Of a DNA stretch of 64,000 bases, positions 3,110-39,220 are shown piece after piece. The notes beneath the pieces were generated by a model, which worked only from the letters and a program-made list of their open reading frames with translations, was not told the DNA's origin and ran no database searches. Location of the stretch: positions 28,766 through 92,765 of IMG/VR virus record IMGVR_UViG_3300047564_003078. The stretch is one strand, 5' to 3'. Numbering within the stretch: position 1 is the stretch's first letter; each line of letters begins with the position of its first letter. Source of the stretch: a virus. The position numbers and the translations under genes are program-made.

Positions 3110-4318
3110 ATGTTCATAGAAGATATACTACAAACCCTAGTGGATAATCACGACATTAATCCGTCAGACAAGCCCATTCTTGTTAGCATTAGTCAACAGG
3201 TAAAAAAAGGCACTGCTCTAACTGATCGTCAACATGCTCTTGTTAAATCAAAGCTGCTTAATTACAAGCACTGTTTTGATGTTAACATTGATGAAATGTT
3301 AGATAACACTAGATTGCCGTTGCGTATAATCAACCGCGAACATTCGATTACTATTGTAAATCATCAAAACATGATGGGTGACGCTCCATATGAGAGTTAC
3401 AAACAAAAATGGAAATGGATTAAGATTAAATTTCCATTTAGTAAAAAAAATATTGTTGCAGTTGAACAACTTAATTCAAGTTCAAAAAGAAATAATTATT
3501 TTCATCAACGCGGTAGTCATGAACACTATTTTCGTTTAACTGAAAATAATGTTTATAATGTTGTACATTCTTTTATAGAAAAGAAGTTCGACATTGATAC
3601 TCAACTGATTGAATGGTACAACGAAGTTAAATCTTTAAAAGAGAACGAACGTTCTCTGTACCCTAGTGTAATCAATTACACTGTAAAAAATATAAGCGAT
3701 GACGGTTGTCAATTAATCGAAAAAGAAATTGGCAATATTGACAAGTCAAATATTTTAAAAATCATTGATCGTAAACGTAGATATGGCATTGTAACAGTTG
3801 ATTATGATAACGTGCCTGCTGGCTTAATTGGCGAAATTGCTTTTAGGACAGATAAAGAAATCAATATCAATCCAGAATCGTTTAATTTAAATTCAATTGC
3901 AGAAGCAACTATGCATCTTGATAGATTTCCGCTACTTGTTGTAATTGACAAAGAAGATGCTTTAAAACAAGTGTCGTCTGTTTATGATGCGTTTTCTTAT
4001 CTAGTTCCTTCTGAAAAACAAAGTGTTTTATTTAGAGTAGAAACCGAAAACAAATACAATGTTAACGATTTTATTCACGAGCGGTCTTTGAACAACTGGC
4101 TTGACACAAACACTGAAATCGTGTATATTTGTAAAAATAAACTTCCTAAATTGTTGTTAAAAACAGATTGGAAACCTAGTGCTGCATTAATTATTACCGG
4201 CACTAGAAGTCATACACACGTTAATTATTATATTAACGATTGTTGCGATCTTGTCATGGTACATGATAAAGATTCTAGTTTAATAGGAAAACTGAATAAA
4301 TCGTATGCCTACTTGTAA
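3110..4318 (+). CDS. hypothetical protein upstream of helicase
   Basis: 402-aa ORF preceded by TTGACA-17-TAAATT. Confidence 0.6.
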   Translation: MFIEDILQTLVDNHDINPSDKPILVSISQQVKKGTALTDRQHALVKSKLLNYKHCFDVNIDEMLDNTRLPLRIINREHSITIVNHQNMMGDAPYESYKQKWKWIKIKFPFSKKNIVAVEQLNSSSKRNNYFHQRGSHEHYFRLTENNVYNVVHSFIEKKFDIDTQLIEWYNEVKSLKENERSLYPSVINYTVKNISDDGCQLIEKEIGNIDKSNILKIIDRKRRYGIVTVDYDNVPAGLIGEIAFRTDKEININPESFNLNSIAEATMHLDRFPLLVVIDKEDALKQVSSVYDAFSYLVPSEKQSVLFRVETENKYNVNDFIHERSLNNWLDTNTEIVYICKNKLPKLLLKTDWKPSAALIITGTRSHTHVNYYINDCCDLVMVHDKDSSLIGKLNKSYAYL

Positions 4319-12487: not shown

Positions 12488-12935
12488 TCTTTTTAAGGAA
12501 ATGATTCCTGCTATTGACTTAGGAATCAAAGAACTTTGGGATGCAGCAACCGACGAAGGCAAGAAAGAAATAAAACTTGACTTGTGGAATCTCAATCGTT
12601 ATATTAGTAGTGTTGGCGGCAGCTTTGAAAAACAAGCGTTGGCGTTGGTCAAAGTTAATGCATATTACAATAAGAACTGGGCAGTGTTAGGAGCAAATCA
12701 TCCTAAGCTACAATGGCAACTGTTGTGTGTTGCTGGTAAAACTGGTAAAAAAGAATTCCATCCGTGGATAGGGCTTAAAAAGAAAAAGGATGATAGTAGT
12801 AAAGCAGTAAAGTTATTATTACAAATTTATCCAAATATGAAGTTAGATGAGGTTGAAACGCTTGCTAGAATATCTACAAAAAAAGAGCTCCAAGAACTTG
12901 CCCGTGAACACGGATACGATAAAGTTGACCTCTAA
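12468..12935 (+). CDS. putative clamp-loader small subunit (T4 gp62-like)
   Basis: Size, NRYIS...N...LQWQLL...PWI pattern and replication context resemble gp62. Confidence 0.45.
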   Translation: MANKHIDLFKEMIPAIDLGIKELWDAATDEGKKEIKLDLWNLNRYISSVGGSFEKQALALVKVNAYYNKNWAVLGANHPKLQWQLLCVAGKTGKKEFHPWIGLKKKKDDSSKAVKLLLQIYPNMKLDEVETLARISTKKELQELAREHGYDKVDL

Positions 12936-18694: not shown

Positions 18695-20113
18695 ATGGCA
18701 ACAAGACAGAATACTGATTACGGATACGATATACAAAAACTATACTTAGAAATAATGCTCACAGATGCAGAAACATTTGTGCGTTGCCAAAGTGTGTTTG
18801 ATTCAACTACGTTTGATCGTAGACTGCAAGACACTGCTAAATTTATCAACGAGTATGTTATTGCACACAACATTGTGCCCACGTTTGATATGGTTAATGC
18901 TGCAACCAAATCAGATCTTAAGAATCCAGGAACACTTGAAGAAGCACACTATGATTGGCTACTACAAGAATTTGAAACATTCTCGAGACACAAAGCACTG
19001 GAAGCTGCTATTCTCAAAAGTGCAGACTTGCTGGAAAAGGGCGAGTATGGTCCTGTTGAAGAACTTGTAAAGCGGGCTGTACAAATTGGTTTGCAAAAAG
19101 ACTTGGGTACAGACTACTTTGCTGACCCGCGACGCAGACTAGAAGCAATCAAAAGCAACAACGGGCAAGTTAGCACAGGCTGGCCCACACTGGACAAGAA
19201 ACTGTTTGGCGGATTCAACAGAGGCGAACTCAATATCTTTGCAGGCGGTTCGGGCTCGGGCAAGAGTTTGTTCCTTGCTAACATGGGTGTAAATTGGGCA
19301 TTGGCTGGAATGAACGTGCTGTATCTCACTTTCGAACTTAGCGAAAACCTAGTCAGTATGCGTATTGACAGTATGGTTACAGACATTCCCAGCAGAGACA
19401 TCTTTAAGAGCATTGACGATGTTGAAATGAAAGTAAAGATGATTGGAAAGAAGTCGGGCAGTATACAAGTCAAGTACATGCCCACAGGCAAGAATGCCAA
19501 TGACTTGCGTAGCTATATCAAAGAATATGAAATCAAAACAAAGAAAAAACTTGATGTTGTATTGGTAGACTATCTAGATCTTATGCATCCAATCGGACAA
19601 AAGATTTCAGCAGAAAATCTATTCGTCAAAGACAAGTATGTCAGTGAAGAACTGCGTAACCTAGCAATGGAACTGAACACAGTGTTTGTTACAGCAAGTC
19701 AGTTGAACAGAGCCAGCGTTGAAGAAATTGAATTTGATCACAGTCATATTTCCGGTGGTATTTCAAAGATCAATACTGCGGATAACTTGATCGGTATCTT
19801 CACAAGTCGTGCAATGAGAGAACGTGGACGTTATCAAATTCAGCTGATGAAAACACGCTCAAGCTCAGGTGTTAACAGCAAGATTGATTTGGAGTTTGAT
19901 GTAGACAGTCTGCGTATTAGAGATCTTGGCGAGGAAGAAGAATTCAACGATTCTGACAAACGCAAGAGCACAGTGTTTGATCAACTCAAACGCAACAACA
20001 ACGCTCCTACTGCACCTGACAATCCCAGCGAAGGCGACACTGTTGGAAAAATACGTGCAACCACAGACAGCACTGCATTAAGAAACTTCTTAAACAAACT
20101 AGACGTTGAATGA
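18695..20113 (+). CDS. DnaB-like replicative helicase (gp41-like)
   Basis: GGSGSGKS, TFEL, VDYLD, TASQLNR and MKTR motifs. Confidence 0.9.
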   Translation: MATRQNTDYGYDIQKLYLEIMLTDAETFVRCQSVFDSTTFDRRLQDTAKFINEYVIAHNIVPTFDMVNAATKSDLKNPGTLEEAHYDWLLQEFETFSRHKALEAAILKSADLLEKGEYGPVEELVKRAVQIGLQKDLGTDYFADPRRRLEAIKSNNGQVSTGWPTLDKKLFGGFNRGELNIFAGGSGSGKSLFLANMGVNWALAGMNVLYLTFELSENLVSMRIDSMVTDIPSRDIFKSIDDVEMKVKMIGKKSGSIQVKYMPTGKNANDLRSYIKEYEIKTKKKLDVVLVDYLDLMHPIGQKISAENLFVKDKYVSEELRNLAMELNTVFVTASQLNRASVEEIEFDHSHISGGISKINTADNLIGIFTSRAMRERGRYQIQLMKTRSSSGVNSKIDLEFDVDSLRIRDLGEEEEFNDSDKRKSTVFDQLKRNNNAPTAPDNPSEGDTVGKIRATTDSTALRNFLNKLDVE

Positions 20114-20129
20114 GATATTATCTAGGAAG

Positions 20130-20891
20130 TCAGCCTACAAATAGACGCTGCCAAAAGGTCTGTGTTTGAACAGTACGCACCACGGGCAATCTACGCACAC
20201 CTAATGCTCGGCTAGGATCATAGAGATCAATTCTAACCGAGTTCTTTTGATTGCCGCCCAATATTTGCCAATACACCTTGCCATCTACAGTTACAGTGTC
20301 CACATAGAATCCTACATGACCTTGCCAGCTTTGTCTACCACGTGGAAACACCACTATGTCACCGGGCTGTGGATCCTCATGTTTATGATTCACAGGCTCG
20401 CCCCATTCTAAGAAACTTCTAGCCATCAACGGATATTCACTTACACTCTCTGATCCTGCATGATCGCCGCTGTGCAACACCGAGTTAACAAAAGCTGCAC
20501 ACCACTCCGTCTGTCTTGGATCCACACCCAAAAAGTCTCGCAGTTCTGATCTGTGCTGTTGTTCGTTCTTGTCCACCCACTCGTAGGCCACATCAAGATA
20601 AAAAGTTTCTCTTATCTTAGGTGCAAACAAAGCTTGAAACAAAGGATCGTTGCGTCGCGGCGGTTCGGGCTCAGGCGGCACCGACACATTTGATATCACA
20701 GCATCAGGTCTACTGCGTGGTCGTGGACTGGTTTCCACCACTGTGACCACGGGCACCGACTCCGGTGTTGCTGGTTCTGTAACAGCATATACCACACCGC
20801 TGGCACGTTCTTCTATGTCTTGTGAAACAACTTGCAATTGACTGCAAGCCCCTAATATGCTGACAGCAGCTACGATTGTTGGTATTCTCAT
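20130..20891 (-). CDS. lipoprotein with TIGR02594/NlpC-P60-like peptidase domain
   Basis: ILGAC lipobox, Pro-rich linker, WCAAFV, GHVGFY and LGGNQ motifs. Confidence 0.75.
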   Translation of the reverse strand: MRIPTIVAAVSILGACSQLQVVSQDIEERASGVVYAVTEPATPESVPVVTVVETSPRPRSRPDAVISNVSVPPEPEPPRRNDPLFQALFAPKIRETFYLDVAYEWVDKNEQQHRSELRDFLGVDPRQTEWCAAFVNSVLHSGDHAGSESVSEYPLMARSFLEWGEPVNHKHEDPQPGDIVVFPRGRQSWQGHVGFYVDTVTVDGKVYWQILGGNQKNSVRIDLYDPSRALGVRRLPVVRTVQTQTFWQRLFVG

Positions 20892-20960
20892 ACTTGGCCC
20901 TCCTAGTACTTATACACACCAACAGAGATACTGCGTGTGGTAAGCAGGATCTTGCTGACT

Positions 20961-21662
20961 CTACTGTAGAAAATGTTCTATGCTGTGGGCTAAACTGCTG
21001 AAGTTGGCTGCTAACCAAGCATGTCCTGCAGGTCCAGGATGAGCACCATCTCTGGCACCTCGGTCAAAGAACACACCGTTCAACCGTGGATCGTCTATGC
21101 TGATCATCTGAACCTCAAACCCGTAGCGTTGGCTGAGACCGTATAGTGCATAGCGTGTGGTACGTACCATAGCACTCAACACACCTGGATGCATGGCAGT
21201 GCGAGTCCAATAACGCCGTATCACCGAAGGATCCGTCAACGGAACATTGGGACGACTGTGAACACTGAATGTGTCCGCTCGTGCATCCTCATAATGACCC
21301 AAATAACGTCTGCCTGGTGTAGGCTCCAAATAGTACAGCACACTGATACGGTGGTTGCACTTTCGCAACAGCGTTTCCAAATAGTGTATGCAGGCTTCTT
21401 GTCCAGTACCACCTTCGCTGATGTTCATGGTTATGCCCATAACACTGCTCCAGGTTTGCTCCTCGCGAACTCCTACACCATAGGTACAACTGCAACCTAA
21501 ACTGGCAGTGGTTGGCTCCGACACTGGCCAATCCAGTCCTCTAAATCCATAACGATTGTGACGATATTCTATGTCCACACCACGCCAGGCAGGATTGCCA
21601 AATCCTCTATCTCCTGCACATAACGGACCTACTGTATAAGGCTTTACATGTGTTAATTGCAT
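20961..21662 (-). CDS. SGNH/GDSL hydrolase-like protein
   Basis: LGCSCTYG and DGAHPG; ATG 21662 follows a minus-strand TAAATA. Confidence 0.55.
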   Translation of the reverse strand: MQLTHVKPYTVGPLCAGDRGFGNPAWRGVDIEYRHNRYGFRGLDWPVSEPTTASLGCSCTYGVGVREEQTWSSVMGITMNISEGGTGQEACIHYLETLLRKCNHRISVLYYLEPTPGRRYLGHYEDARADTFSVHSRPNVPLTDPSVIRRYWTRTAMHPGVLSAMVRTTRYALYGLSQRYGFEVQMISIDDPRLNGVFFDRGARDGAHPGPAGHAWLAANFSSLAHSIEHFLQ

Positions 21663-21788
21663 ACAGATATTTACCAAGAGCCCTAAGCCGCTCGCGGAAA
21701 AGCCCCACGCTGCGAAGCAGCTCGCGGTAGCAAAAAATAACAATTCAGTACCAGCGTACTAGAACCGTATATAAAAACAATTCTACAT

Positions 21789-21840
21789 TGACCACGTCGC
21801 TAGCACCCTAACGACACGTCGATAACCGCCTAGCGACACG
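21789..21840 (-). repeat. left boundary array of 22-bp repeat (2 full + 1 partial unit)
   Basis: Minus strand reads CGTGTCGC / TAGGCGGTTATCGACGTGTCGT / TAGGGTGCTAGCGACGTGGTCA, an inverted copy of 31215-31266. Confidence 0.85.
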
Positions 21841-22395
21841 GTGTAGAAAAATACATCATTCTATTATGCGTACACCGTCTGTACTCAACAAAAACAGTGT
21901 CATATTTTTAGGACTGTGATGAGCTGCACACACTATTTCAAAATGTTCACTGGCTAACAGAGTAAACCCACGGTGAACCAATTCTACTCGTACCCATTGA
22001 ACTTTTCCAAACGGGTACAAAAACATGCTACGGCGGTCTAACTCAACATGCAGTCGCCAAGTGTACAACATAGAAATATTTACCGGAGCAACGCTCCAGT
22101 GCAGGCAGTTGATCACTGCCTTGCAGTTTCAGTTGAGAGGGGTATACTGCGTAAAAAAAATACTGCAAAAAAAATTTACACGGAGTACTTGAGCAAGGTG
22201 GGACCGAGATTTCATACACAGTGAGAAAAAACTTGTGCTGCGGTTTTTTATAAAGAAGTACTTATAGTTTCAGGGTGGTGATCGTGCAACCCCTGGTATT
22301 TAAAATCGCTACTACGCTGTGTAAGCTTTTGTAAATAAAGAATTATATGCGACCCCCCGAAGAGAAAAAATATTTTTCTTTGCCGACCTCAAGAG

Positions 22396-22424
22396 AAAAT
22401 CCGCAGGTTGTCAAACACTGCGGA
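22396..22424 (-). terminator. intrinsic terminator closing the minus-strand cassette array
   Basis: TCCGCAG..CTGCGGA stem followed by TTTT on the minus strand, just after ORF 22466. Confidence 0.6.
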
Positions 22425-22465
22425 AGTTCTGTATACATCAACGAAGGAGACAGCCGTTGTGATCG

Positions 22466-22840
22466 TTAGTCTGCTCTGCTGCCAGCGTAGGCAGTGTAAC
22501 CATACTTGGTGAGCACACGAGCAGCAGCACGAGCACCTGCTTCCTTAGCGTCCATGCTCTGCCCGGGCCACTGTGCAGGGTTCCACAGTTCGTAAGCCCG
22601 ACCAGTGTAGTCAGGACGCAGTCCAATCTCCTTAAGCGTTTGACGCTCCAGCTTACCCAGCTTAGTGTTGCCCTTGTGCTTGGGATATACAGTGACCCAA
22701 GCAAAGCCGCAGTACATGGGTTCGCCATAAGCATTGCCGCCAGTGCTGGCTTTCCACTCTGCGATGTAGTCGTGTGCAGCAGCAGCAGCCGCAGTCAAGG
22801 TCTCGTCACGTACTTGGATGGTGTCCATGGTAAAGGTCAT
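22466..22840 (-). CDS. early hypothetical protein
   Basis: Has its own promoter/leader repeat and RBS; CGFAWV motif. Confidence 0.7.
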   Translation of the reverse strand: MTFTMDTIQVRDETLTAAAAAAHDYIAEWKASTGGNAYGEPMYCGFAWVTVYPKHKGNTKLGKLERQTLKEIGLRPDYTGRAYELWNPAQWPGQSMDAKEAGARAAARVLTKYGYTAYAGSRAD

Positions 22841-22894
22841 CTTGTGTTCCTTTGTGTTGCCTACAGTGTTTATATAGTACGCTGCGGTGGAAGG

Positions 22895-23122
22895 TCAAGC
22901 CACTGTGGCGAAGTTTTCTTGCCGCAGAGGCAGATAGTTCTTTGCCACAGCATAGCGGATCAATTGACGATCCAGTTCAGTGAGTGTGGTCACACGGTTA
23001 GGAGTCTCCAGTTCAAATGCCAGTTGGCTTGCGGCATTGGCGATGCGATCGTTGAGATCACGTTCAGCAGTGCAGCGGAGACGATACATGATCTGTTGGA
23101 CTTGAGCGGCAGTGAGTTTCAT
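22895..23122 (-). CDS. early hypothetical protein
   Basis: 75 aa; ATGA-coupled with GAGG RBS. Confidence 0.6.
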   Translation of the reverse strand: MKLTAAQVQQIMYRLRCTAERDLNDRIANAASQLAFELETPNRVTTLTELDRQLIRYAVAKNYLPLRQENFATVA

Positions 23123-23250
23123 TTCTCTTCCTCATATACTAGGACAGGGTCGTGTGCATTGCGTGGTGCAGTGGTCATTGCGATAGCGTCTTCTAGACGT
23201 GTGACCACAGCTACGATTTCGCGGGTAAGATAGTCGCGGATGATATACAT
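23119..23250 (-). CDS. early hypothetical protein (43 aa)
   Basis: MYIIRDYLTRE...; tightly packed in operon. Confidence 0.5.
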   Translation of the reverse strand: MYIIRDYLTREIVAVVTRLEDAIAMTTAPRNAHDPVLVYEEEK

Positions 23251-23251
23251 G

Positions 23252-23443
23252 TTAGTCTCGCTTGATTCGAACAGTGCTCTTGCCAAAGAACGCAACCAGC
23301 ACAACCATTGCCAGCCAGTTCCAGAAGCTGTAGGCAATGCCCATAGCGAACAGAGTGTTCAGTGCCCAAATCGCAGCCAAGGGCCAAAGGAAGACCCAAA
23401 GGATGATGGTGAGCACAAGGGTAGTTCCAAACCAGGTCTTCAT
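23252..23443 (-). CDS. small membrane protein
   Basis: Two hydrophobic segments; AGGAG RBS. Confidence 0.6.
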   Translation of the reverse strand: MKTWFGTTLVLTIILWVFLWPLAAIWALNTLFAMGIAYSFWNWLAMVVLVAFFGKSTVRIKRD

Positions 23444-23456
23444 CTCAGTTCTCCTA

Positions 23457-23702
23457 TCAAAATTCGTCGATCAGTGCGAAGTCGTCATCGCCCTCGTAGT
23501 GGTCTTGGTAGTCATCTGCACTGTAGGTATAGATTGTGCTGTATTCGCCGTTGCTGAGGTGAACCGCAACATCAATGGTGTTGTATCCGCCAAAGCCGTC
23601 TTCAACATAATCATCTGCCCAACGCAGGGCTTCACTGCGAGTGTCAGCTTCATGCAGCAGGCATTCGGTGGTGTAGCCATAGTCGCCATAGATCTTGTAC
23701 AT
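23457..23702 (-). CDS. early acidic hypothetical protein
   Basis: Has its own promoter repeat; AGGAG RBS. Confidence 0.65.
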   Translation of the reverse strand: MYKIYGDYGYTTECLLHEADTRSEALRWADDYVEDGFGGYNTIDVAVHLSNGEYSTIYTYSADDYQDHYEGDDDFALIDEF

Positions 23703-23786
23703 CGTCGTCTCCTGTGTTGCCTACAGTCTACATATAGTGTTCTGGTTTCGGTTTGTCAACCTCTAACAGCGGGGTTCTGTGATTTT

Positions 23787-23957
23787 TTATTCCAGAGCCT
23801 CAGTGCAGTCGCAGTCCATCATATACTCGCTCATGATGCTGTCGTATGCAACATCACGCTTGGCCTGCCATTGTCCCACAGTCTCAGGACTGAACACGTA
23901 CACCAGCACGATGAGCCATGCAGTGGCGAAGAACAGGTTCGTTGGGTAGTTTTGCAT
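23787..23957 (-). CDS. small membrane-anchored protein (56 aa)
   Basis: MQNYPTNLFFATAWLIVLV...; GGAG RBS. Confidence 0.5.
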   Translation of the reverse strand: MQNYPTNLFFATAWLIVLVYVFSPETVGQWQAKRDVAYDSIMSEYMMDCDCTEALE

Positions 23958-23958
23958 C

Positions 23959-24234
23959 TTATTTCTCCTCTTTCACGCCCATTGCACGGGCAGCGGCTAC
24001 ACCTGCTTCAGTGAGGTACAGCACACGGTTACGGGTCTCAGTTTCGACAAACAGGCAACCAGCGTCATCTCCGCGTCCTTGGTTCCAGCTTTGGAGACGT
24101 GCATCTGGGTTCTTCAGCAGTGCGGTGAGTGCCATCTTGCGAGCACGGTCGCCTTCGTTGTACTTGCCATTGCAGCCGCACATGCAGCCAGGCTTGCCAG
24201 CGTATGAACGGACGGTGTGTTCCAGTGCGAGCAT
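23959..24234 (-). CDS. early Cys-motif protein (GCMCGCNGKY)
   Basis: Start ATG 24234 follows promoter repeat and GAGGG. Confidence 0.65.
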   Translation of the reverse strand: MLALEHTVRSYAGKPGCMCGCNGKYNEGDRARKMALTALLKNPDARLQSWNQGRGDDAGCLFVETETRNRVLYLTEAGVAAARAMGVKEEK

Positions 24235-24292
24235 CGTGTATCCCTCTTCGTTGCTGCCTACATGTTTAATATAGTAACCGTTCAACGGTTTG

Positions 24293-24691
24293 TCAAGAGC
24301 CTTCAGCCACTTTTTCTAGGTCTGCCAAAAGATTTTTCAGAGCCGCGATACGCTCTTGGCTAGGAAAGAAGCGGCCTGAATAGCTGTAGCCCTCCTTGAG
24401 TTCCTGCTCCATAGCACGAGCGATTCGCACCTGCTCCTTGCGACGAGTCTCGCTCTCTTGGATCATACGCAGTTTGGCAGCCTGCATCAAGCTAGGACCA
24501 TAATCGTCCTTGTAAGCATCTCCCGTCTTGGTGAAACGATACTCCCGGTCATCGCTTTGGACGAAGATGTGTCCGTGTCCGTTGACCTTGGTCACAGTGC
24601 CAAAGCGGCTCATCAAGATCGTGCCGTGGCGATGTTGACGAACAATACCAACCGTTTCACCAACCTCAGTAACGAACTCACCGTATGCCAT
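24293..24691 (-). CDS. early hypothetical protein (SH3/KOW-like N-terminus)
   Basis: Has its own promoter repeat; GAGGAG RBS. Confidence 0.65.
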   Translation of the reverse strand: MAYGEFVTEVGETVGIVRQHRHGTILMSRFGTVTKVNGHGHIFVQSDDREYRFTKTGDAYKDDYGPSLMQAAKLRMIQESETRRKEQVRIARAMEQELKEGYSYSGRFFPSQERIAALKNLLADLEKVAEGS

Positions 24692-24777
24692 CTGCTTGTG
24701 CTCCTCTAGCAGTGTTGCCCTACATGTTTAATATAGTCATGGTGACCGCAAAGGTCAACCTCGAACTCAATCTTTTT

Positions 24778-24969
24778 TTAGATTCCGTCGTAGTCGGGCA
24801 GTGCCTGCAGGCGGGGGATTTCCTTTTGGATGATCTCCAACTCCTGTGCTTCGGGCACAGGCGGCATGGAGTAGGCCATAGCCAACCAGCCAATGGTGTA
24901 TTCTGTGCCACACTTCTGACGCAGGAGTTTGACGAAGTCTTGCTTGACGTAGAACGGTTTGGTTTCCAT
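24778..24969 (-). CDS. early hypothetical protein
   Basis: Has its own promoter repeat; AAGGAG RBS. Confidence 0.65.
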   Translation of the reverse strand: METKPFYVKQDFVKLLRQKCGTEYTIGWLAMAYSMPPVPEAQELEIIQKEIPRLQALPDYDGI

Positions 24970-25046
24970 CTTGTGCTCCTTGCTGCCTACACGTTTAATA
25001 TAGTAGGTGCGACCCTGGTTGTCAAGAGCCGCACCAGAATTTTTTT

Positions 25047-25331
25047 TTACATGCTCCAGTAGGTTTCGCTAGCGGGCGAGCAAGCCAGTGGCGTGTTCAC
25101 GCTCTCCTCGTACTCAACACCGCTCATCAAATTGACTCGCTTCACAGTCCGCTCAATGTGACGGAAGTAGTATTCTTTCTCTGCGATGCCGTAGCAGTAG
25201 ATTGGATGATTAGGATCTGTTTGCAATTGACCTTTGCCCATACGAGTCAGTTGGGCCTGAGCAGCGGCGTGCGTCTTGTACTCCTTGCTGACGATGCGAG
25301 TGTCGTGCCGATCGTAAAGAAAGTATCCCAT
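25047..25331 (-). CDS. early hypothetical protein (CSPASETYWSM C-terminus)
   Basis: Has its own promoter repeat; GAGGG RBS. Confidence 0.65.
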   Translation of the reverse strand: MGYFLYDRHDTRIVSKEYKTHAAAQAQLTRMGKGQLQTDPNHPIYCYGIAEKEYYFRHIERTVKRVNLMSGVEYEESVNTPLACSPASETYWSM

Positions 25332-25399
25332 CTTCGTTCCCTCTTGTGTGTAGCCCTACTCAGCATATATAGCACGCCAAGTAGGGCTCGTCAACCGGT

Positions 25400-25588
25400 T
25401 TATGCTGAGAAATTGTGTTCTCTGAACAGAACGTCTAGCACACTGTCAATGGTCTCTCTGTCTGTTGCCAGCAGTTGATAACCGTGTGCGAGCAGTGCAG
25501 CCTTGATGCTCCAGATCTGTTCATAGCGGTCGGCGTCTCGGTTGAGGTTGTTGGCTACGAACTTTGCTACTTGTTGATGGAATGTCAT
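25400..25588 (-). CDS. early hypothetical protein
   Basis: Has its own promoter repeat; GAGGG RBS. Confidence 0.6.
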   Translation of the reverse strand: MTFHQQVAKFVANNLNRDADRYEQIWSIKAALLAHGYQLLATDRETIDSVLDVLFREHNFSA

Positions 25589-25663
25589 TGTGTGTTCCCT
25601 CTGTTGTGTTGCCCTACATGTTTAATATAGTAGGTGGCAGATGGGTTGTCAAGAGGTAAGATG

Positions 25664-25775
25664 AAAAAAATGCCCTAGCAGGATGAGGGCGGTCCTGCTA
25701 GGGCTATGGGGAGCAGAGCGTGAGGGCTACGCTGTTCCCCTTCAGACCAGGACGAGGGCACATCCCAGCCTAACC
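25664..25775 (-). ncRNA. candidate three-hairpin small RNA with GCCCUC in every loop; last hairpin is an intrinsic terminator
   Basis: Hairpins UAGGCUGGGAU[GUGCCCUC]GUCCUGGUCUG, AGCGU[AGCCCUC]ACGCU and GCCCUAGCAGGA[CCGCCCUCA]UCCUGCUAGGGC followed by AUUUUUUU. Confidence 0.55.
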
Positions 25776-25785
25776 GGATACGGAG

Positions 25786-26784
25786 TTACACTCGACGCAT
25801 CACGGTGTTCTCAGCAAAGACTTCCCAACGATCAGGAAAGCTCACTGCCAAGTCTGCCACCTTTAGTACAGTCCGAAGACTGAGTTCACGTAGGCGGTTC
25901 TTGTTAATATCCACGAACTCAATGATATCTTCTTTGACTTCGTCACCGAGGTTGTATGCATCCAACATGCCATCACGGATCACTTGACGGATACGCAGCA
26001 TCTTCTCACGCTCAGTGTCAATGGTCAGGTCCATGTAGTGGCAGCGGCTTTCCAGAGCTTCTAGGTGCTCACGCAGCTTGCCTTTGACCTTTCCAAACTT
26101 GAGGTTGGTGATAAAGATAGCACTTGCCTTGAAAGTGAAGCAATCTGGAATGCCTTCTTGCCGCAGCTTGTGGCTATCCGTGTTCCAGTGGATCTTGCGG
26201 TTCTTCTTTGAGTCCAGAGCTGCCTTAAGAATGTTCAGCGACAGTTCGTCCGAGAAGATGCTGTCACAGTCGTCGAACACGATCACATTGCCTTCGTCTG
26301 CCATCTTGTACAGTTTGGCATAGAGACCCAACGCACTCATGGCACCTTTGACCACTTCGTGTGTCTTGCGACCGCCCATGTCTTCCATCATCTTGTAACG
26401 ATCAAGGACTTCTTCTACACCGTGACTCTTGCCAACACCAGGAGGACCTGATACGATCATTGCTCGCACATCGCCCTTCTTCACAGCTTTGGTCATGTCG
26501 GTGAGCATATTGAAACGATCACGCAGTCTAGCGATGATGTCTTCGTCCGACTCCTCTTGACCCGCGGCGGTTATGGAGCCTTCAGTTTCAACAACCGAGT
26601 CTGCACCTGCTACCATCACCTTGATATTGCGGTCTGGAAACCCAGGGACAGCCGCACCATCAACTGTCACATAACCGCCGCGAACGCCAACCTTGTATCC
26701 TTCTGCAACAGGCAAGGTCATGCCTGCTACGCTAACCATCTTGCCACGCAGTTTGAATTCGCCGTCTTGGAATTTCATGTTCAT
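25786..26784 (-). CDS. AAA+/P-loop ATPase
   Basis: Walker A GPPGVGKS, Walker B IVFDDCD, sensor FITN, arginine finger LESR. Confidence 0.8.
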   Translation of the reverse strand: MNMKFQDGEFKLRGKMVSVAGMTLPVAEGYKVGVRGGYVTVDGAAVPGFPDRNIKVMVAGADSVVETEGSITAAGQEESDEDIIARLRDRFNMLTDMTKAVKKGDVRAMIVSGPPGVGKSHGVEEVLDRYKMMEDMGGRKTHEVVKGAMSALGLYAKLYKMADEGNVIVFDDCDSIFSDELSLNILKAALDSKKNRKIHWNTDSHKLRQEGIPDCFTFKASAIFITNLKFGKVKGKLREHLEALESRCHYMDLTIDTEREKMLRIRQVIRDGMLDAYNLGDEVKEDIIEFVDINKNRLRELSLRTVLKVADLAVSFPDRWEVFAENTVMRRV

Positions 26785-26840
26785 GTGTTTTGCCCTCGTT
26801 GTATCTGTTCAGTATACATGTTCTTGCAGTGTTGTCAACC

Positions 26841-27005
26841 TCAAAGACTGTTCATATATAGCAGCCAGCCTAGGAGACCAAACACCGCAAACAGCACCAC
26901 CGGACGTGTCATGATCTTGAAAATCAAACCAACCACACCCAAGATGATCAAGGCACTCAGTGCCAAGACCACTACAGAGAACGAATCCATCATCGCAGGA
27001 TCCAT
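26841..27005 (-). CDS. small membrane protein (54 aa, 2 TM)
   Basis: Coupled to the stop of 27005-27406; hydrophobic. Confidence 0.5.
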   Translation of the reverse strand: MDPAMMDSFSVVVLALSALIILGVVGLIFKIMTRPVVLFAVFGLLGWLLYMNSL

Positions 27006-27406
27006 CATACCATCGACTCCATCTCTGAGATCACAGTCTGGATCTGCTGATCAAATAGGCCTTTGTAGGGCAGTCCGAAGTGCCAAGCCACATAGTCCGA
27101 ACCATAAGCCAGGTCGTTCTCAGTGAATGCTTCAGCTTCGAGGATCCAACGGATGGCAGTCAGCTCGTCCTTAGCACCAATCAGCATGTAGCCTTGGACA
27201 CGCTGGTGGAACGCAATCTCTGCACGAGCATAGGCGTCCTTCTGCCGTGCTGTCTCAGTGGCCAGTTCCTCCAGCAGGTTGTCCCACATGGATTGACGAG
27301 TGTCGTCGCCGCACTGGCTCCACTCTTCCCAGAAGTACTCGGTCGGACGATAGCCGCGAGCGTCCTTGTGGAGGTCGGAAACGATCTGCTCATCGAAAGT
27401 ATACAT
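27005..27406 (-). CDS. early hypothetical protein (SDLHKDARGYRP motif)
   Basis: Has its own promoter repeat; GAGGG RBS. Confidence 0.7.
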   Translation of the reverse strand: MYTFDEQIVSDLHKDARGYRPTEYFWEEWSQCGDDTRQSMWDNLLEELATETARQKDAYARAEIAFHQRVQGYMLIGAKDELTAIRWILEAEAFTENDLAYGSDYVAWHFGLPYKGLFDQQIQTVISEMESMV

Positions 27407-27501
27407 CTTGTGTCCCTCAGTTCTGTTTGCCCTACACGTTTAATATAGTAGCCTCACAACCGTTTGTCAAGAGGTAGAAGAAGATTTTTTTAAACTTCTT
27501 T

Positions 27502-27578
<77 letters not shown>

Positions 27579-27591
27579 AGCAAAAGAAGTT

Positions 27592-27668
27592 TGGTAGGAC
27601 CTGCAGGACTCGAACCTGCAACCGACCCGTTATGAGCGGGGGGCTCTAACCAATTGAGCTAAGGTCCC
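27592..27668 (-). tRNA. tRNA-CAU, probably Ile2 (lysidine, reads AUA); Met not excluded
   Basis: Anticodon loop CTCATAA, GGGACCT acceptor stem, encoded CCA. Confidence 0.9.
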
Positions 27669-27674
27669 AAACTT

Positions 27675-27757
27675 TGGTACGGGCACCCGGACTCGAACCG
27701 GGATGCATTAAGCGAGAGATTTTAAGTCTCTTGTGGCTACCATTTCACCATGCCCGC
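27675..27757 (-). tRNA. tRNA-Leu(UAA)
   Basis: Anticodon loop CTTAAAA, extended variable arm, encoded CCA. Confidence 0.93.
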
Positions 27758-27767
27758 ATAGATTTAT

Positions 27768-27956
27768 TTATACTGGTACATTCTCGAACATATCGTTAAT
27801 TCGACATTGACGTTCCGTCTCTTCATCGATTTGACGAACTTCTGTTTCCAGCCGAACAATGTATTGATCCAGTGCTTGGCGAATCTTAGCTGTCGGAAGT
27901 TCGGCAATATCGCCTAGCTTGCTGATGACTGCGATCAGTGTCATGTAATCGTTCAT
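27768..27956 (-). CDS. early hypothetical protein (leads tRNA operon)
   Basis: Has its own promoter repeat; GAGGG RBS. Confidence 0.6.
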   Translation of the reverse strand: MNDYMTLIAVISKLGDIAELPTAKIRQALDQYIVRLETEVRQIDEETERQCRINDMFENVPV

Positions 27957-28185
27957 TGTGTCCCTCTTTGCTGTCTACATGTTTAATATAGTGGCCGTCT
28001 TCGGGTTTGTCAAGACCTAAAAAGTCTTTTTTTAGAATTTCCAGCTGCTCCAGTGCATCCGGATACCGCTCCAGCAGACTGTCCATCAGCAGGTCTCCAT
28101 CACATAGCCGTCCTCTTCTGCTTGCCGCAGCAGGTGTTCAATATAGTCCAGATAATCTTGGATAGTCAAGTCCATGTCGTTCTCC

Positions 28186-28470
28186 TTATGCCGGAATCTT
28201 TTTGATGTTGAGGTCTTGTGCTTCGTAGTCTGCATCGATAGTGCCGCTGACGAAGTAACGACGACGAGTGCCGTCGTGCTCAAAGCCCATCTCGTGAGTA
28301 TAGTTCTCCTTGGGCAGGTAAGCAAAGCCGCGATAGTTATCAGTCTCCATCAACACGGCTTCGATCACCGCAGCAACCGCCTCACGCTCTTCAGCGGTGG
28401 TGTGCTTGGCAGCAAGAAAGTTATTCGCAATCCGCAGTACCTTGCCAACTTCAATCGTCTTACGTGCCAT
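28186..28470 (-). CDS. early hypothetical protein (NYRGFAYL motif)
   Basis: Has its own promoter repeat; AGGAGG RBS. Confidence 0.7.
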   Translation of the reverse strand: MARKTIEVGKVLRIANNFLAAKHTTAEEREAVAAVIEAVLMETDNYRGFAYLPKENYTHEMGFEHDGTRRRYFVSGTIDADYEAQDLNIKKIPA

Positions 28471-28551
28471 CTGCGTGCCTCCTGGCGTTGCTGTCTACAG
28501 TTTACATATAGTGGCCGCAACCCGCTTTGTCAAGAGGGCTGCGACATTTTT

Positions 28552-28959
28552 TTATGCTTCTTCTGTTTCCAATGCACGAGCAAGGTCGTAGATGCCGTTG
28601 TAGGTGCTCACCTGCCAGCCAGCACCAGGAGTGAACAGGTAGTCATACTCCTGCCCGTTCTCAGCAACGAACTGACGCCAGTTGTGTGCAGTGCGAGCAT
28701 CAACATCACGCTCGCCACGATCGCGAGCATAGGAATTGGTTTCGCCCGCAGGAGCATTGTCAAAGTCGTGAGCAGTGCCAATCTCAGCACCAAGCGAACT
28801 GATATCGCCAAGACCGATCAACTCACGCACCTTAGCTTCGTCCGTATAGTTCTCAGCAAGGATTCGGCCGTTGTGGCTCAAGTAGCCGTCCCAGTGGCAG
28901 TAGATGCCCGTAACCGAACCGTCTTCATTCTGGATCCCAATAGTTGAACGAGTTCCCAT
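28552..28959 (-). CDS. early hypothetical protein (MGTRS..IYCHWDGY type)
   Basis: Has its own promoter repeat; GAGGAGG RBS. Confidence 0.75.
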   Translation of the reverse strand: MGTRSTIGIQNEDGSVTGIYCHWDGYLSHNGRILAENYTDEAKVRELIGLGDISSLGAEIGTAHDFDNAPAGETNSYARDRGERDVDARTAHNWRQFVAENGQEYDYLFTPGAGWQVSTYNGIYDLARALETEEA

Positions 28960-29032
28960 AGTAGCCTCCTCAGGCGTTGTGTTGCTGTCTACAGTTTACA
29001 TATAGTCACGGGCGACCCAAAGGTCAAGTGGT

Positions 29033-29398
29033 TCAGGCAAATTCTTTTGCACCTGTGATCACATAATCCTGCCGCCAGCTGCCGATGCGGATATCCGTGT
29101 AGTGGCTGCGGTGGAAGTAGTCCGTCATTGAGTCGTCGTGGTTGAAGTAGTCCGGGCCCTTCATAGCAGCCAGCAACTCAGTGAGGAAGCGACGAGCGAC
29201 ACCAGTGTAATGCTCGTGGATCCAATACTCGTTGACATCAATGTTGGTGCCGCCAAAGTCAATGGGTCCGCTCTTGATCTTCACAACCAGAGTGCTGTGA
29301 TGACCAACGCTGATGGTGCCCTTCATCTTGTACTTGGCGAGCACGGCACGGATCCCCGGTGCCAGCTTGGACTTGTCTTCCTGCGAAACATATGCCAT
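29033..29398 (-). CDS. early hypothetical protein (DDSMTDYF motif, LPD29-like)
   Basis: Has its own promoter repeat; AGGAG RBS. Confidence 0.7.
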   Translation of the reverse strand: MAYVSQEDKSKLAPGIRAVLAKYKMKGTISVGHHSTLVVKIKSGPIDFGGTNIDVNEYWIHEHYTGVARRFLTELLAAMKGPDYFNHDDSMTDYFHRSHYTDIRIGSWRQDYVITGAKEFA

Positions 29399-29477
29399 GT
29401 CGTGTGCTCCTGTGTTGCCTACATGTTTAATATAGTTGCCCCACCTGGTGTTGTCAAGAGGGGCAACGACATTTTTT

Positions 29478-29657
29478 TTATTCTAGCACGGTGCTCCAAG
29501 GTTGAGCGTTCTGCCACTCTTCGTAGTTCAGCAGGTGCAGCAGAGTGAGGTGTGTGCCAGCAGTGATGGTCTTACCACTGTCACGATGACGAGCACGCCA
29601 GTTGTTCGAACGATAGATGTTCCAGCCACGCTCTGCGAGTTCTTGCGAGTTCAGCAT
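29478..29657 (-). CDS. small hypothetical protein (59 aa)
   Basis: GAGGGC RBS; MLNSQELAERGW...; not in ORF track. Confidence 0.5.
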   Translation of the reverse strand: MLNSQELAERGWNIYRSNNWRARHRDSGKTITAGTHLTLLHLLNYEEWQNAQPWSTVLE

Positions 29658-29669
29658 TGCCCTGCCCTC

Positions 29670-29741
29670 TTAGGCGAAAGTGATGAAGTGGTGTGCAGCG
29701 ACAGCAATCATGATCGCGGAAAGCAGGATCGGAAGTTTCAT
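29670..29741 (-). CDS. 23-aa hydrophobic peptide
   Basis: First ORF after promoter copy 29757; GAGG RBS; MKLPILLSAIMIAVAAHHFITFA. Confidence 0.45.
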   Translation of the reverse strand: MKLPILLSAIMIAVAAHHFITFA

Positions 29742-29805
29742 CGTGTGCCTCTTTGTGTTGCCTACAGTTACTATATAGTCACCGTTGAACCGTTTGTCAA
29801 GTGGC

Positions 29806-30087
29806 TCAAGCAAATTCTTTTACTGGCTTGAGCAAGCTTGCATGAACCTTCCACGTGGTGTAGGCATTGTCCTGCTTGACTTGGATGGTCTTGATGTTGA
29901 CTTTGGTCACAGTGCCCAGCACCTGCATACCACGAGCGGCAAACGATACACGGTCGCCAACAGCGAAACTCACAGCACTCTGACGAGCAAGGTAGGTGCG
30001 GCGGTCTTTGATTGCACGAACCACAGCGTTCAGTTCGTCGTTGTCCATCTTGTGGATTGCAGTGATGGCGGTTGCAAAGTTGTTCAT
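29806..30087 (-). CDS. early SH3/KOW-like protein
   Basis: FAVGDRVSF..GTVTKVN..W motif; ATG 30087 follows promoter repeat. Confidence 0.65.
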   Translation of the reverse strand: MNNFATAITAIHKMDNDELNAVVRAIKDRRTYLARQSAVSFAVGDRVSFAARGMQVLGTVTKVNIKTIQVKQDNAYTTWKVHASLLKPVKEFA

Positions 30088-30160
30088 CTTGTGGTCCTCT
30101 TTGTTGCCTACAGTGTTTATATAGTCACCAGTCAATGTAAGATCAAGTGGTGCAGGAAAA

Positions 30161-30532
30161 TTATTTTACATGAACCGAGCAGCTCTCTGTTGCGGGTTTG
30201 TACACCACAGCATCTGCCGACACGCCTGCCGCAGCCAGAGCAGCCAGGAAGTCCGCACGACGACGAGCACGATTCAGCACCACTCGGTTGAACTTGACTT
30301 CTGTGTGAGCCTCGCGACGAGCAGTGCGACCCCGTGCTGTCTCGTATATAGCAGCCCAACCTGCGAAGTATTCACGCATGATGCTCTTCACTGTTTCTAC
30401 TCGCAGTTGATGGGCAGTGCTGTCAAACAGGTTGCGGTTGGCAAGATACGCTGCCTCTGCACGAGCATTGATGTCTTCTACTGCGAACCATGCGGGCTGA
30501 CGAGTGTTTGATTCAGTGTCCTTGATCAGCAT
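30161..30532 (-). CDS. early hypothetical protein (first gene of array)
   Basis: Has its own promoter repeat; AAGGAG RBS. Confidence 0.65.
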   Translation of the reverse strand: MLIKDTESNTRQPAWFAVEDINARAEAAYLANRNLFDSTAHQLRVETVKSIMREYFAGWAAIYETARGRTARREAHTEVKFNRVVLNRARRRADFLAALAAAGVSADAVVYKPATESCSVHVK

Positions 30533-30646
30533 GTCTGTGCTCCTTGCTGCCTACAGTTACTATATAGTCACCCCTCCTACAGTTCGCAAGAGGCAGCACG
30601 AAAAAAAATTTCCGAAAAAAAAGTGAAAAAATCTTCCTCCAGCCTC

Positions 30647-30690
30647 TTGTAAAGCTCGCAAGCCGCACTATATTAAGTAGTGAGGCCAGC
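30647..30690 (+). promoter_or_regulatory. divergent promoter of the same class, pointing into non-coding DNA
   Basis: TTGTAA-16-TATATT-AAGTAGTGAGGCCAGC; shares A-tracts 30601-30631 with the leftward promoter. Confidence 0.5.
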
Positions 30691-30747
30691 AAAGCACCGC
30701 GGACACGGAGCGAGTAGGGGACGCGAGGGTCGCCGAACCCTGAACCT

Positions 30748-30890
30748 ATGGTTTAATGATTAAACCATTCTCTCCCCGCGAGATAGTTTAACGTTAAACC
30801 TTCTCCTCCGATTGGTTTAACACTAAACCATTCACCTCGATTCGGTTTAACTCTAAACCATTGCCTCAAACCAGTTTAACATTAAACCAT
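30748..30890. repeat. five palindromes (G)GTTTA-N4/5-TAAACC at ~30-bp period
   Basis: GTTTA starts at 30751, 30786, 30815, 30845 and 30874. Confidence 0.85.
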
Positions 30891-30978
30891 CTGCTTCCCG
30901 CCACCAAGATGCACCTTCTTGCCACCACCACCGCCCCACCACCACAGACAGTTCAACCAACCGCTGAACTTGACCAGC

Positions 30979-31130
30979 TAACCCATCGATCACGGATAGT
31001 GTAATGAAATCAATCACTTATACCACCTATTAGAACCACCACATAACCCATTGATCTTACACTAGTAAAAAGATCCAACAAAGTCAATAGGTTACACTGC
31101 ATAGTAGAACCACAGTGTAACCCATTGAAA
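30979..31130. promoter_or_regulatory. five IHF-like sites in alternating orientation
   Basis: AATCAATCACTTA at 31008 is an exact WATCAANNNNTTR match; near matches at 30979, 31044, 31082 and 31118. Confidence 0.5.
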
Positions 31131-31178
31131 GAATTCGGTTTTTCTCCAACACGGTAATGCCTGTGCCCTATACTCCAC

Positions 31179-31266
31179 TAGAGGCTTACCGACACGCCGC
31201 TAGACGGCTATCGACGTGTCGCTAGGGGCTTATCGACGTGTCGTTAGACACCGTATGACGTGGTTG
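31179..31266 (+). repeat. right boundary array: four tandem 22-bp units
   Basis: TAGAGGCTTACCGACACGCCGC / TAGACGGCTATCGACGTGTCGC / TAGGGGCTTATCGACGTGTCGT / TAGACACCGTATGACGTGGTTG. Confidence 0.85.
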
Positions 31267-31548
31267 ATCTGAGATTTTCTAAACTTTTCAAGGATTTGTA
31301 GTAGAAAAATCAGATTGAGGTTGAGGTCTTGAGAGGCATAGTTCAAATACTTTTCACTACTTTTCACTACTTCTCACCTTAGTCTCAACGATTCTCACCT
31401 TTGTTTACAGTGTATAAAAGTTCTCTTGACAGTGTGTGTATACAGTGTATAGTGTTGTAAAGCTCTTGCCTTTGTACACACTTCTACTGTGAGATCTCTA
31501 GCCGCCCTTTGTGGTGTATGTGCAGTTGACTCGCTAAGTATGTGTGCA

Positions 31549-31818
31549 ATGTATTTGTATGCTATCAAAGACACCACCACAGGTTTAATCAAGTTGGGTT
31601 ACAGTTCTGATCCAGTCAGTCGTCTACGTGAGTTACAAACAGGCAGCAGCAGTGTTCTCGTTTTGGTACACACAGAGGCAGTATCATCAGATGCACGTAT
31701 ACTAGAGCGAGAGTTGCATAGGGATATAAACCATCTGCGTGTTCGTGGTGAGTGGTTTCGGTTAACGGAATCTTCAGCACGCAATTTAATTCAGTGGTGT
31801 GTGATTCGCTATGACTAA
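31549..31818 (+). CDS. T5orf172/Mug113 (GIY-YIG-like) domain protein
   Basis: YLYAI..IKLGYS.DP..RL.ELQTG..LERELH..RGEWF. Confidence 0.8.
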   Translation: MYLYAIKDTTTGLIKLGYSSDPVSRLRELQTGSSSVLVLVHTEAVSSDARILERELHRDINHLRVRGEWFRLTESSARNLIQWCVIRYD

Positions 31819-38653: not shown

Positions 38654-39066
38654 CGTAGCCACGCAACTCGCTTGCCTGCGTCAACTCTACGACGATATTC
38701 TTCTTCACTGCTGGGATATCTCCATGCCCAAACAGCAACCAGTATCATGAATGCACCTGTCCACAGTGCAGCAAGATCGTTGCCAGTTGCTAACCATGTG
38801 ATCAACACAGTGGATAGCATTGTGACCAACATTAGATATTTCAGTCGTTGTGGAAATATACGCTTTTCTTGCCAACCTGTTAAGAAAGGACCAAATCTTG
38901 GATGATTGTACAACCAATTGTGCATACGATCACTGCTTCTAGCAAAACAATATGCTGCTATCACAGTAGGAGTACTCCACGGAATACCCGGAACTACAAC
39001 GCCTATAAATGCTACGCCTATAGACAGTATACCAGTGGCAAACCACAGTGCTTTACTTAATTTCAT
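38650..39066 (-). CDS. ybaN: YbaN (DUF454) inner-membrane protein
   Basis: G.IGVVVPG.P..P....[17 protein letters not shown]. Confidence 0.85.
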
Positions 39067-39220
39067 CTTGTTTCTCTTTGTTTTTTGAATATTCTTCTTC
39101 TAGATCAAGGACCCAAACTATGTTGCCATCGTAAGAACTTAGATACACTAAGTTTCCGCTGAATAGATCATTGTAGGTTTCTGTCCATTCGTTCCAAAAA
39201 TTTGTAATACGTCTCAACAT
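39053..39220 (-). CDS. small hypothetical protein
   Basis: Follows minus-strand TAAATA at 39225-39230. Confidence 0.4.
   Translation of the reverse strand: MLRRITNFWNEWTETYNDLFSGNLVYLSSYDGNIVWVLDLEEEYSKNKEKQDEIK

Follow-up and report, generated by a model that had tools for sequence, protein, structure and literature searches.

What are two rows of short repeats doing at the edges of the early genes of a giant phage? The question is raised by a 64,000-nt stretch of the IMG/VR record IMGVR_UViG_3300047564_003078 (hereafter the window). The full contig is 92,765 bp long, which IMG/VR estimates to be about 26% of a complete genome, and the whole jumbo phage is expected at around 350 kb. Within the window, 9.4 kb apart, two arrays of a 22-bp repeat flank a block of small early genes. 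A first-pass annotation made from the sequence alone had described them as symmetric protein-binding sites and suggested that they define either a long terminal repeat or first-transferred DNA, or else an invertible segment. It is now clear that the arrays belong to a family of cis elements that is real and conserved and had not been described before, akin to phased operator- or iteron-like arrays and to the hubs found at terminal-repeat boundaries. As to their role, our analysis tentatively favours the view that they mark the edges of a long direct terminal repeat that is the early block itself, although we would put this at somewhat less than an even chance.

The two arrays in the window are readily recovered, both by a repeat finder and by reading the sequence in a 22-bp register. 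Divergence in the right array is greatest in its first unit, and the array closes with a half unit, CCGTATGACGTGGTT. The outermost units of both arrays are half-degenerate. The repeat finder reports a pair of inverted arms of 33 nt (21808-21840 and 31215-31247) that are 94% complementary (31/33), which is the same figure given in the first pass. It also reports a longer pair of 43 nt (21793-21835 and 31198-31240) that is 84% complementary. A direct alignment of the two arrays matches at 23/33 positions, compared with 31/33 for the inverted one. However, the polarity is weak because the single units are near-palindromes. A derived unit, TTATCGACGTGTCGYTAG, is common to both arrays. Might the motif simply be scattered along the genome? 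Within the entire 92,765-bp contig, ATCGACGTGTCGNTAG is confined to the two array sites. When up to one mismatch is allowed in the 10-mer core there are five matches, against 1.3 expected, and four of the five are inside the arrays.

The setting of the arrays is also as first described. They lie at the edges of a GC-richer region of about 9.3 kb, with 50.2% GC between them compared with 37.8% on the left side and 42.2% on the right. Beside them is apparently non-coding DNA, with no convincing gene in the 589 bp on the inner side of the left array or in 800 bp around the right one, only short mechanical open reading frames (ORFs).

The window arrays are not alone. In the closest relatives homologous arrays occupy equivalent places, at the downstream edge in contigs L014 and L015 and at the upstream edge in L018. 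A two-unit search pattern derived from the arrays of these three contigs has 18 matching stretches in IMG/VR and, among metagenome contigs, at least 120; some of these are single matches due to chance. Across viral and metagenome contigs, 31 distinct arrays have at least two strong units. Homologues of the left array are present at the same position in L014, L015, a larger genome designated G004 and the metagenome contig L130, and homologues of the right array in L018, G004 and L130. The arrays form islands of identity in non-coding DNA that is otherwise poorly alignable, as seen when the left array is compared with L014 and the right array with the more distant G004. Still more distant relatives, such as L021, are without the 22-bp motif and have other short repeats at the equivalent places. 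Such arrays are easily missed. Tandem Repeats Finder and a simple 22-bp self-identity scan overlooked most of them, and an exact 16-mer of a window unit gave single matches only in IMG/VR, about the number estimated to arise by chance.

The most rigid property of the family is its spacing. Neighbouring units are separated by exactly 22 bp in 84 of 84 cases, and no other spacing occurs up to 100 bp. The consensus unit is CCGTATGAC-NN-GTCGTTAGG, with the half-site variants CCGTATGAC, CCTAACGAC and CTTATCGAC and a further variant form, TTATCGAC. The two halves of a unit are variants of one half site, and therefore each unit is a near-palindrome around GAC-NN-GTC. A typical array starts with ...AACCGTGTC and ends with GACRYGGTT..., and the terminal half units are kept across genomes. 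Rigid phasing of near-palindromic units would be expected if several dimers of a single DNA-binding protein were lined up on one face of the helix. The proposal of symmetric protein-binding sites is therefore well matched by the near-palindromic units, the phasing and the islands of conservation, and from this pattern we infer binding.

Where the genome is nearly whole, the arrays come as a single pair. In G004 (330 kb, 93% complete) they are present only at 209.86 kb and 227.30 kb, 17.4 kb apart, around the early block, with a helicase gene on one side of the pair and a T5orf172 gene on the other. L130 has both arrays 8.1 kb apart, again around its early block. The block lies between the same flanks in every relative compared. 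It points the same way with respect to the helicase flank in seven genomes (the window, G004, L018, L014, L015, L021 and L130), and likewise with respect to the right flank in those contigs that extend that far. In contrast to the placement, the relation of the two arrays to each other is not constant. It is ambiguous in G004 (27 vs. 25) and direct in L130 (29/33 direct vs. 19/33 inverted), and when fixed flank markers are taken as reference, some lineages have individual units, and also the entire upstream array module, the other way round. A search of relatives for equivalent inverted arrays, as the first-pass annotation had advised, finds the pairs but no constant inversion. The inverted arrangement is a feature of the window genome and not of the array family.

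What kind of phage is this? The source is an uncultured marine jumbo phage, and by sequence kinship it belongs to the PA5oct/Rak2-related clade. Its large terminase is 54.5% identical to that of the Pseudomonas phage PA5oct group, 42% to that of the Rak2-like Klebsiella phage Muenster and about 30% to those of T4-like phages. Related records reach 256-330 kb at 72-93% completeness, and IMG/VR assigns all of its related records to the linear class that has no end repeats. A host among the Flavobacteriaceae was considered because one array contig (PKDU01000014.1, L213, 3.7 kb) is binned in a metagenome-assembled genome of that family. This is too weak a lead, and such a host is disfavoured because the early promoters are of the TTGACA/TATAAT type.

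The terminase is one clue to what the arrays might do. Characterised members of this terminase clade package fixed ends with repeats of 20-39 kb. For PA5oct, the nearest cultured relative, a direct terminal repeat of 39,080 bp has been described, and its genes show high early transcription (PMC7318152). In the Asteriusvirus fEgEco12 a repeat of 20,993 bp has been established with PhageTerm and by restriction digests, and according to the authors repeats of about 20 kb are found in most of the few jumbo phages with mapped ends (PMC13070987). The other clue is anatomy. In the fEgEco12 record (PP777464.1, L214) the repeat opens with 1.7 kb of gene-free leader, after which come 56 small genes. It contains 20 strict TTGACW-N16-18-TAnnnT promoters, whereas one is present just past its edge. 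A gene-free leader and early cassettes driven by host-type promoters are found in the window as well. The terminal-repeat reading is favoured because this anatomy of leader, promoter-per-gene cassettes and trailer is also that of the stretch between the arrays.

How might this work? Each array would be a row of helically phased near-palindromic 20-bp sites, 22 bp apart, on which several dimers of one sequence-specific protein would sit on one face of the DNA. The two rows would form the outer edges of the block of early-gene cassettes, and that block would be the long direct repeat found at both ends of a non-permuted virion chromosome, the arrangement that is most likely in this terminase lineage. 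The arrays would then be located at or beside the physical DNA ends and again at the inner repeat boundaries. There they may serve as a signal that shows the packaging or end-handling machinery where the repeat is bounded on either side. A site that looks almost alike from both directions would suit recognition at either edge, provided that the block is the repeat. In its fullest form, the idea is that the 22-bp arrays are the cis signal defining both terminal-repeat edges throughout a widespread marine PA5oct/Rak2-related clade, and that a dedicated dimeric protein cues the terminase, or an end-protecting factor, on the limits of the repeat. Taken as a whole, this extended proposal is possible and more doubtful still.

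Several observations do not fit this idea well. PA5oct homologues of the block's ATPase (at 248.7 kb) and tRNAs (267-272 kb) are outside the annotated repeat (1-39,080), so the homology of the blocks is not one-to-one, even though these genes are within the same run of plus-strand small genes. The edges of the PA5oct repeat (286,760-1 and 39,060-39,080 of MK797984.1, L089-L092) have a direct TTCGGTG 11-12 nt before each, and the left edge is flanked by TTCGGTG ... CACCGAA. TTCGGTG is thus a candidate cut-site motif of PA5oct on sequence grounds, one that the accessible part of the PA5oct paper does not mention. It was not found at or near either window array. No comparable shared repeat (of at least 10 nt) is present at the two repeat edges of fEgEco12. 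Unit polarity and array orientation flip between lineages, and an orientation-blind regulator therefore fits at least as well as a cutting signal. The ends of several metagenome contigs are no more than about 50 nt away from an array, on either side, but by inspection there is no pile-up of ends at one fixed position beside the arrays. Finally, a protein to bind the arrays is hard to name. The ORFs scanned and four genomes yielded no repressor-like, helix-turn-helix, ribbon-helix-helix or ParB domain, and the ParB_N domain in particular is absent from all four genomes searched.

Some other potential boundary signals were dropped. Subtracting 39,080 from 286,783 in PA5oct gives a position, 247,704, that falls in a strand-switch gap. 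This is a coincidence, because the position is without TTCGGTG whereas the annotated edges at 1 and 39,080 have it. Words containing AGTACT near the ends of fEgEco12 are not a boundary signal either, since 77 copies are spread across the entire repeat. Counted as 8-mers there are 77 in 23.5 kb, about 70 times the chance number, all at or below position 20,856 and hence inside the repeat (1-20,993). The right repeat edge of fEgEco12 has TAGCGAC, which resembles an array half site; as a single occurrence it is a weak lead only.

What if the arrays are unconnected with chromosome ends? In one scenario they are only operator or architectural sites, and a dimeric regulator from the phage or its host binds cooperatively to both rows and bridges them, much like lambda CI at OL and OR. 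The early block would then be looped, or its boundary promoters controlled at the switch from early to middle expression. Rows of three to five near-palindromic sites exactly two helical turns apart are what such a regulator would need, and its function could well be blind to orientation given the flips between lineages. The unit TTATCGACGTGTCGYTAG shared by the two window arrays points to concerted evolution. In some relatives an outward promoter has its -35 hexamer within the terminal unit: TTGACA-16-TAAAAT in L156, TTGACT-16-TATAAA in L121, ATGACA-17-TCTAAT in L100 and, by our own reading of the sequence, ATGACG-16-TATAAT in L166. However, promoter overlap is seen in a minority of arrays only, the arrays have no overlap with the roughly 15 early promoters, and neither the ORFs scanned nor the four genomes yielded a repressor-like domain. 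We consider the operator scenario rather unlikely, but worth keeping in mind. Less likely again is that the arrays are iteron-type origins, one at each edge of the block, where an initiator melts adjacent A/T-rich DNA for loading of the DnaB-like helicase. A 22-bp period is classic for the iterons of plasmids such as R6K (gamma ori) and pPS10, near-palindromic iterons are present at the lambda origin, and phage SPP1 has two origins that are bound by one initiator. The arrays have the period, with all 84 spacings at whole helical turns and rows of at least three repeats. A/T-rich stretches follow the outer unit in most of them, the helicase gene is close to the left array, and the nearest folds of an AAA+ protein encoded in the block include ORC/Cdc6 bound to origin DNA. 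Nevertheless, two copies per genome, always at block edges, would be an unusual placement for origins. The arrays do not keep one orientation towards the A/T-rich side, the scan of the ORFs revealed no Rep-type initiator, and the AAA+ match is a generic one that fits RFC and RuvB just as well. We consider an origin function improbable.

The remaining alternative, an invertible segment, was raised in the first pass; a related version is that the arrays are the ends of a multi-site element of the Mu or Tn7 kind that carries the early genes. The window itself encourages this idea, with arrays inverted at 31/33 identity, with three plus four 22-bp units that recall the ends of Mu and Tn7, and with an AAA+ protein in the block that has weak similarity to MuB. 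Invertible terminal segments have been reported in one jumbo phage, although the inverted repeats there run to kilobases (bioRxiv 10.64898/2026.10.21.760668). The relatives do not bear it out. In all seven genomes the block points the same way, and in L130 the two arrays are in direct orientation. Pfam and PHROGs scans of the ORFs (small ones in part) revealed no recombinase or transposase, in keeping with the first-pass remark that none was seen in the window. These three findings disfavour both versions. In addition, no relative lacks the block at this place, and the missing presence/absence polymorphism counts against transposon ends. We see hardly any prospect that the arrays are recombination sites.

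How do the arrays and the block compare with known systems? The repeats of PA5oct, Rak2 and Asteriusvirus phages resemble the window block in that they go with the same terminase lineage and are built of early genes with host-type promoters. The repeat edges of PA5oct and fEgEco12, like the window arrays, are in repeat-rich non-coding DNA. However, no phased 22-bp arrays are known or seen at those edges, and PA5oct has its direct TTCGGTG instead. The array-bounded block is also shorter (8-17 kb) than the repeats of fEgEco12 and PA5oct. The closest analogue in the literature is in phage T5, where a 131-bp inverted pair (IRC-spacer-IRD and IRD'-spacer-IRC') with DnaA boxes is located inside the left terminal repeat (bioRxiv 10.1101/866236). 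The pair is kept across T5-like phages at a variable spacing of 1.8-4.3 kb and has been proposed to be part of the injection stop signal (bioRxiv 10.1101/866236). Both systems place paired clusters of binding sites around variable host-takeover genes, at variable distance, in non-coding hubs of, or potentially of, a terminal repeat. They differ in that the T5 repeats are 131 bp long, have paired DnaA boxes and are both inside the terminal repeat, whereas the window has 22-bp rows at the block edges and their relative orientation is not kept. In addition, the window unit TTATCGACG matches the DnaA box (TTWTNCACA) at 7/9 positions at best and the family consensus CCGTATGAC has no match to it.

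Other precedents are partial. The OL and OR operators of lambda are two clusters of about three near-palindromic sites each, roughly two helical turns apart, that flank a gene block and support cooperative binding of CI and looping. The arrays are likewise two phased clusters of near-palindromic sites around a gene block. However, the lambda operators overlap the promoters that they control and have the repressor gene between them, whereas the block promoters of the window are not overlapped and no repressor was found in the ORFs scanned. Plasmid and lambda iterons share with the arrays their directly repeated units, the 22-bp period and adjacent A/T-rich DNA. The plasmid systems differ because no cognate Rep gene was found for the window arrays, there are two loci per genome, and the near-palindromic units are of variable polarity. 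Lastly, the promoter-early stem-loop (PeSL) elements of T4-type phages, which Arbiol and colleagues are said to have described in 2010, reportedly form self-contained promoter-gene cassettes that are shuffled between relatives. The likeness is to the interior of the block only. PeSLs join cassettes internally, whereas the arrays form an element of their own, found only at the two outer edges.

The arrays, the block and its flanks are listed below.

Table. Features in and around the array-bounded early block (window coordinates).
Feature	Position	Strand	Remarks
DnaB-like replicative helicase	18695..20113	+	conserved left-flank marker; 1.7 kb from left array
260-aa ORF of no assigned function and CHAP-domain lysozyme-like gene	20130..21743	-	outer left flank
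GC-rich hairpin cluster	21688..21735	-	outer side of left array; RNA: GCUGC-UUCG-GCAGC, CCGC-GA-GCGG
Left (downstream) array	21785..21848	-	three 22-bp units: TTCTACACCGTGTCGCTAGG / GTTATCGACGTGTCGTTAGG / GCTAGCGACGTGGTCAATGT (minus-strand reading)
Trailer	21849..22437	-	589 bp, no convincing gene, short mechanical ORFs only; between last early gene and left array
Early-gene block	22438..30600	-	about 15-20 small ORFs, GC about 50%; repeat families D1-D7 and promoter scan
AAA+ ATPase, phrog_1250, 332 aa	25786..26784	-	sole large conserved protein of block
Three tRNA genes, Leu(taa), Met(cat), Arg(tct)	27502..27757	-	
Leader	30693..31184		no convincing gene; between right array and first early promoter; CCACC tracts
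Right (upstream) array	31185..31270	+	four 22-bp units; strong ones 31207-31226, 31229-31248
Outer flank of right array	31271..31453	+	A/T-rich stretch, conserved block, repeats, outward promoter
Conserved block GAGAGGCATAGT	31331-31342	+	outer flank of right array; present in G004
TTTTCACTA/TTCTCACC repeats	31351-31399	+	outer flank of right array; present in G004
Outward promoter TTGACA-16-TATAGT	31426-31453	+	outer flank of right array
T5orf172/MUG113 (GIY-YIG-like) small gene	31489..31818	+	Pfam E = 5e-14

Inside the block, the repeat finder and a promoter scan indicate that most ORFs have their own promoter of the TTGACA-N17-TATATT type and a common leader. The cassettes at 22438-30600 are shared with G004 (comparison with L083/L084) in shuffled order, while both flanks are collinear. 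In relatives, 28-nt palindromes with a perfect stem (ACAGTATAC...GTATACTGT) are present at cassette joints within the early block, at 12505-12532 and 12999-13026 in L018 and at 3791, 7976, 8677 and 11744 in L042. A structure model of the AAA+ ATPase has a predicted local distance difference test (pLDDT) score of 84. Foldseek places it nearest to ORC/Cdc6, RFC, RuvB and MuB with a template modelling (TM) score of about 0.4, so that on the model the fold match is only generic, and phmmer against PDB sequences was uninformative. The anticodons of all three window tRNAs are among those of the 12 tRNAs of PA5oct (PMC7318152). Rfam finds nothing except tRNAs at 20.8-32.2 kb. This gives no support to an RNA reading of the arrays, and by our own reading a 22-bp unit cannot fold as RNA because its loop would be 2 nt.

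The non-coding DNA on the inner side of the arrays has signals of its own. The trailer contains a terminator-like hairpin (22100-22082) and conserved patches. In the leader are one short mechanical ORF (30853-31017, minus strand) and two 48-nt repeats at 31007-31128. At 30705-30770 a block of about 60 nt (GAGTAGGGGACGCGAGGGTCGCCGAAC...GGTTTAATGATTAAACC) is approximately 95% identical to G004 amid an otherwise diverged leader, and it is also kept in L018. Five GTTTAAY-NN-TWAAAC palindromes with a spacing of about 30 bp are located at 30750-30889. They occur nowhere else in the contig and are kept in G004 and L018. A half copy of this palindrome, AATGACGTTAAAT, adjoins many downstream arrays in relatives. 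This distribution points to a second, separate family of putative binding sites at both edges.

On the outer side of the left array, the hairpin cluster includes a C(UUCG)G tetraloop stem and has equivalents after the downstream array in L015 and L130. These GC-rich hairpins are probably terminators or stabilisers of RNA ends. A AATAGTAC motif outside downstream arrays was examined as a genome-wide promoter word and is not one. Homologues of the CHAP-domain gene are present in 27 related loci and recur in array-bearing contigs; in L014 it follows the downstream array. On the right, homologues of the T5orf172 gene are present in 11 related loci and are 0.5-1.1 kb from an array in the five loci compared for position. 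Judged by its domain, the T5orf172/MUG113 protein is a possible nuclease partner of the arrays. In PA5oct, repeats of the CACTTTCTCAC type are present just past the right repeat edge.

What would the arrays mean for this group of phages? They offer a concrete handle on the way in which the 20-40-kb terminal repeats of Rak2/PA5oct-lineage jumbo phages are delimited, and they touch on the related question of why terminal repeats coincide with the genes that are expressed first. The element is short, conserved, easily mutated and restricted to the two edges of the early block. Its tag, GTCGWTAR-N3-CCGTATGAC every 22 bp, can be used to find the edges of the early block in metagenomic members of this uncultured clade. 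If the terminal-repeat reading is true, the arrays would be the first defined repeat-boundary element for the PA5oct/Rak2-related giant phages.

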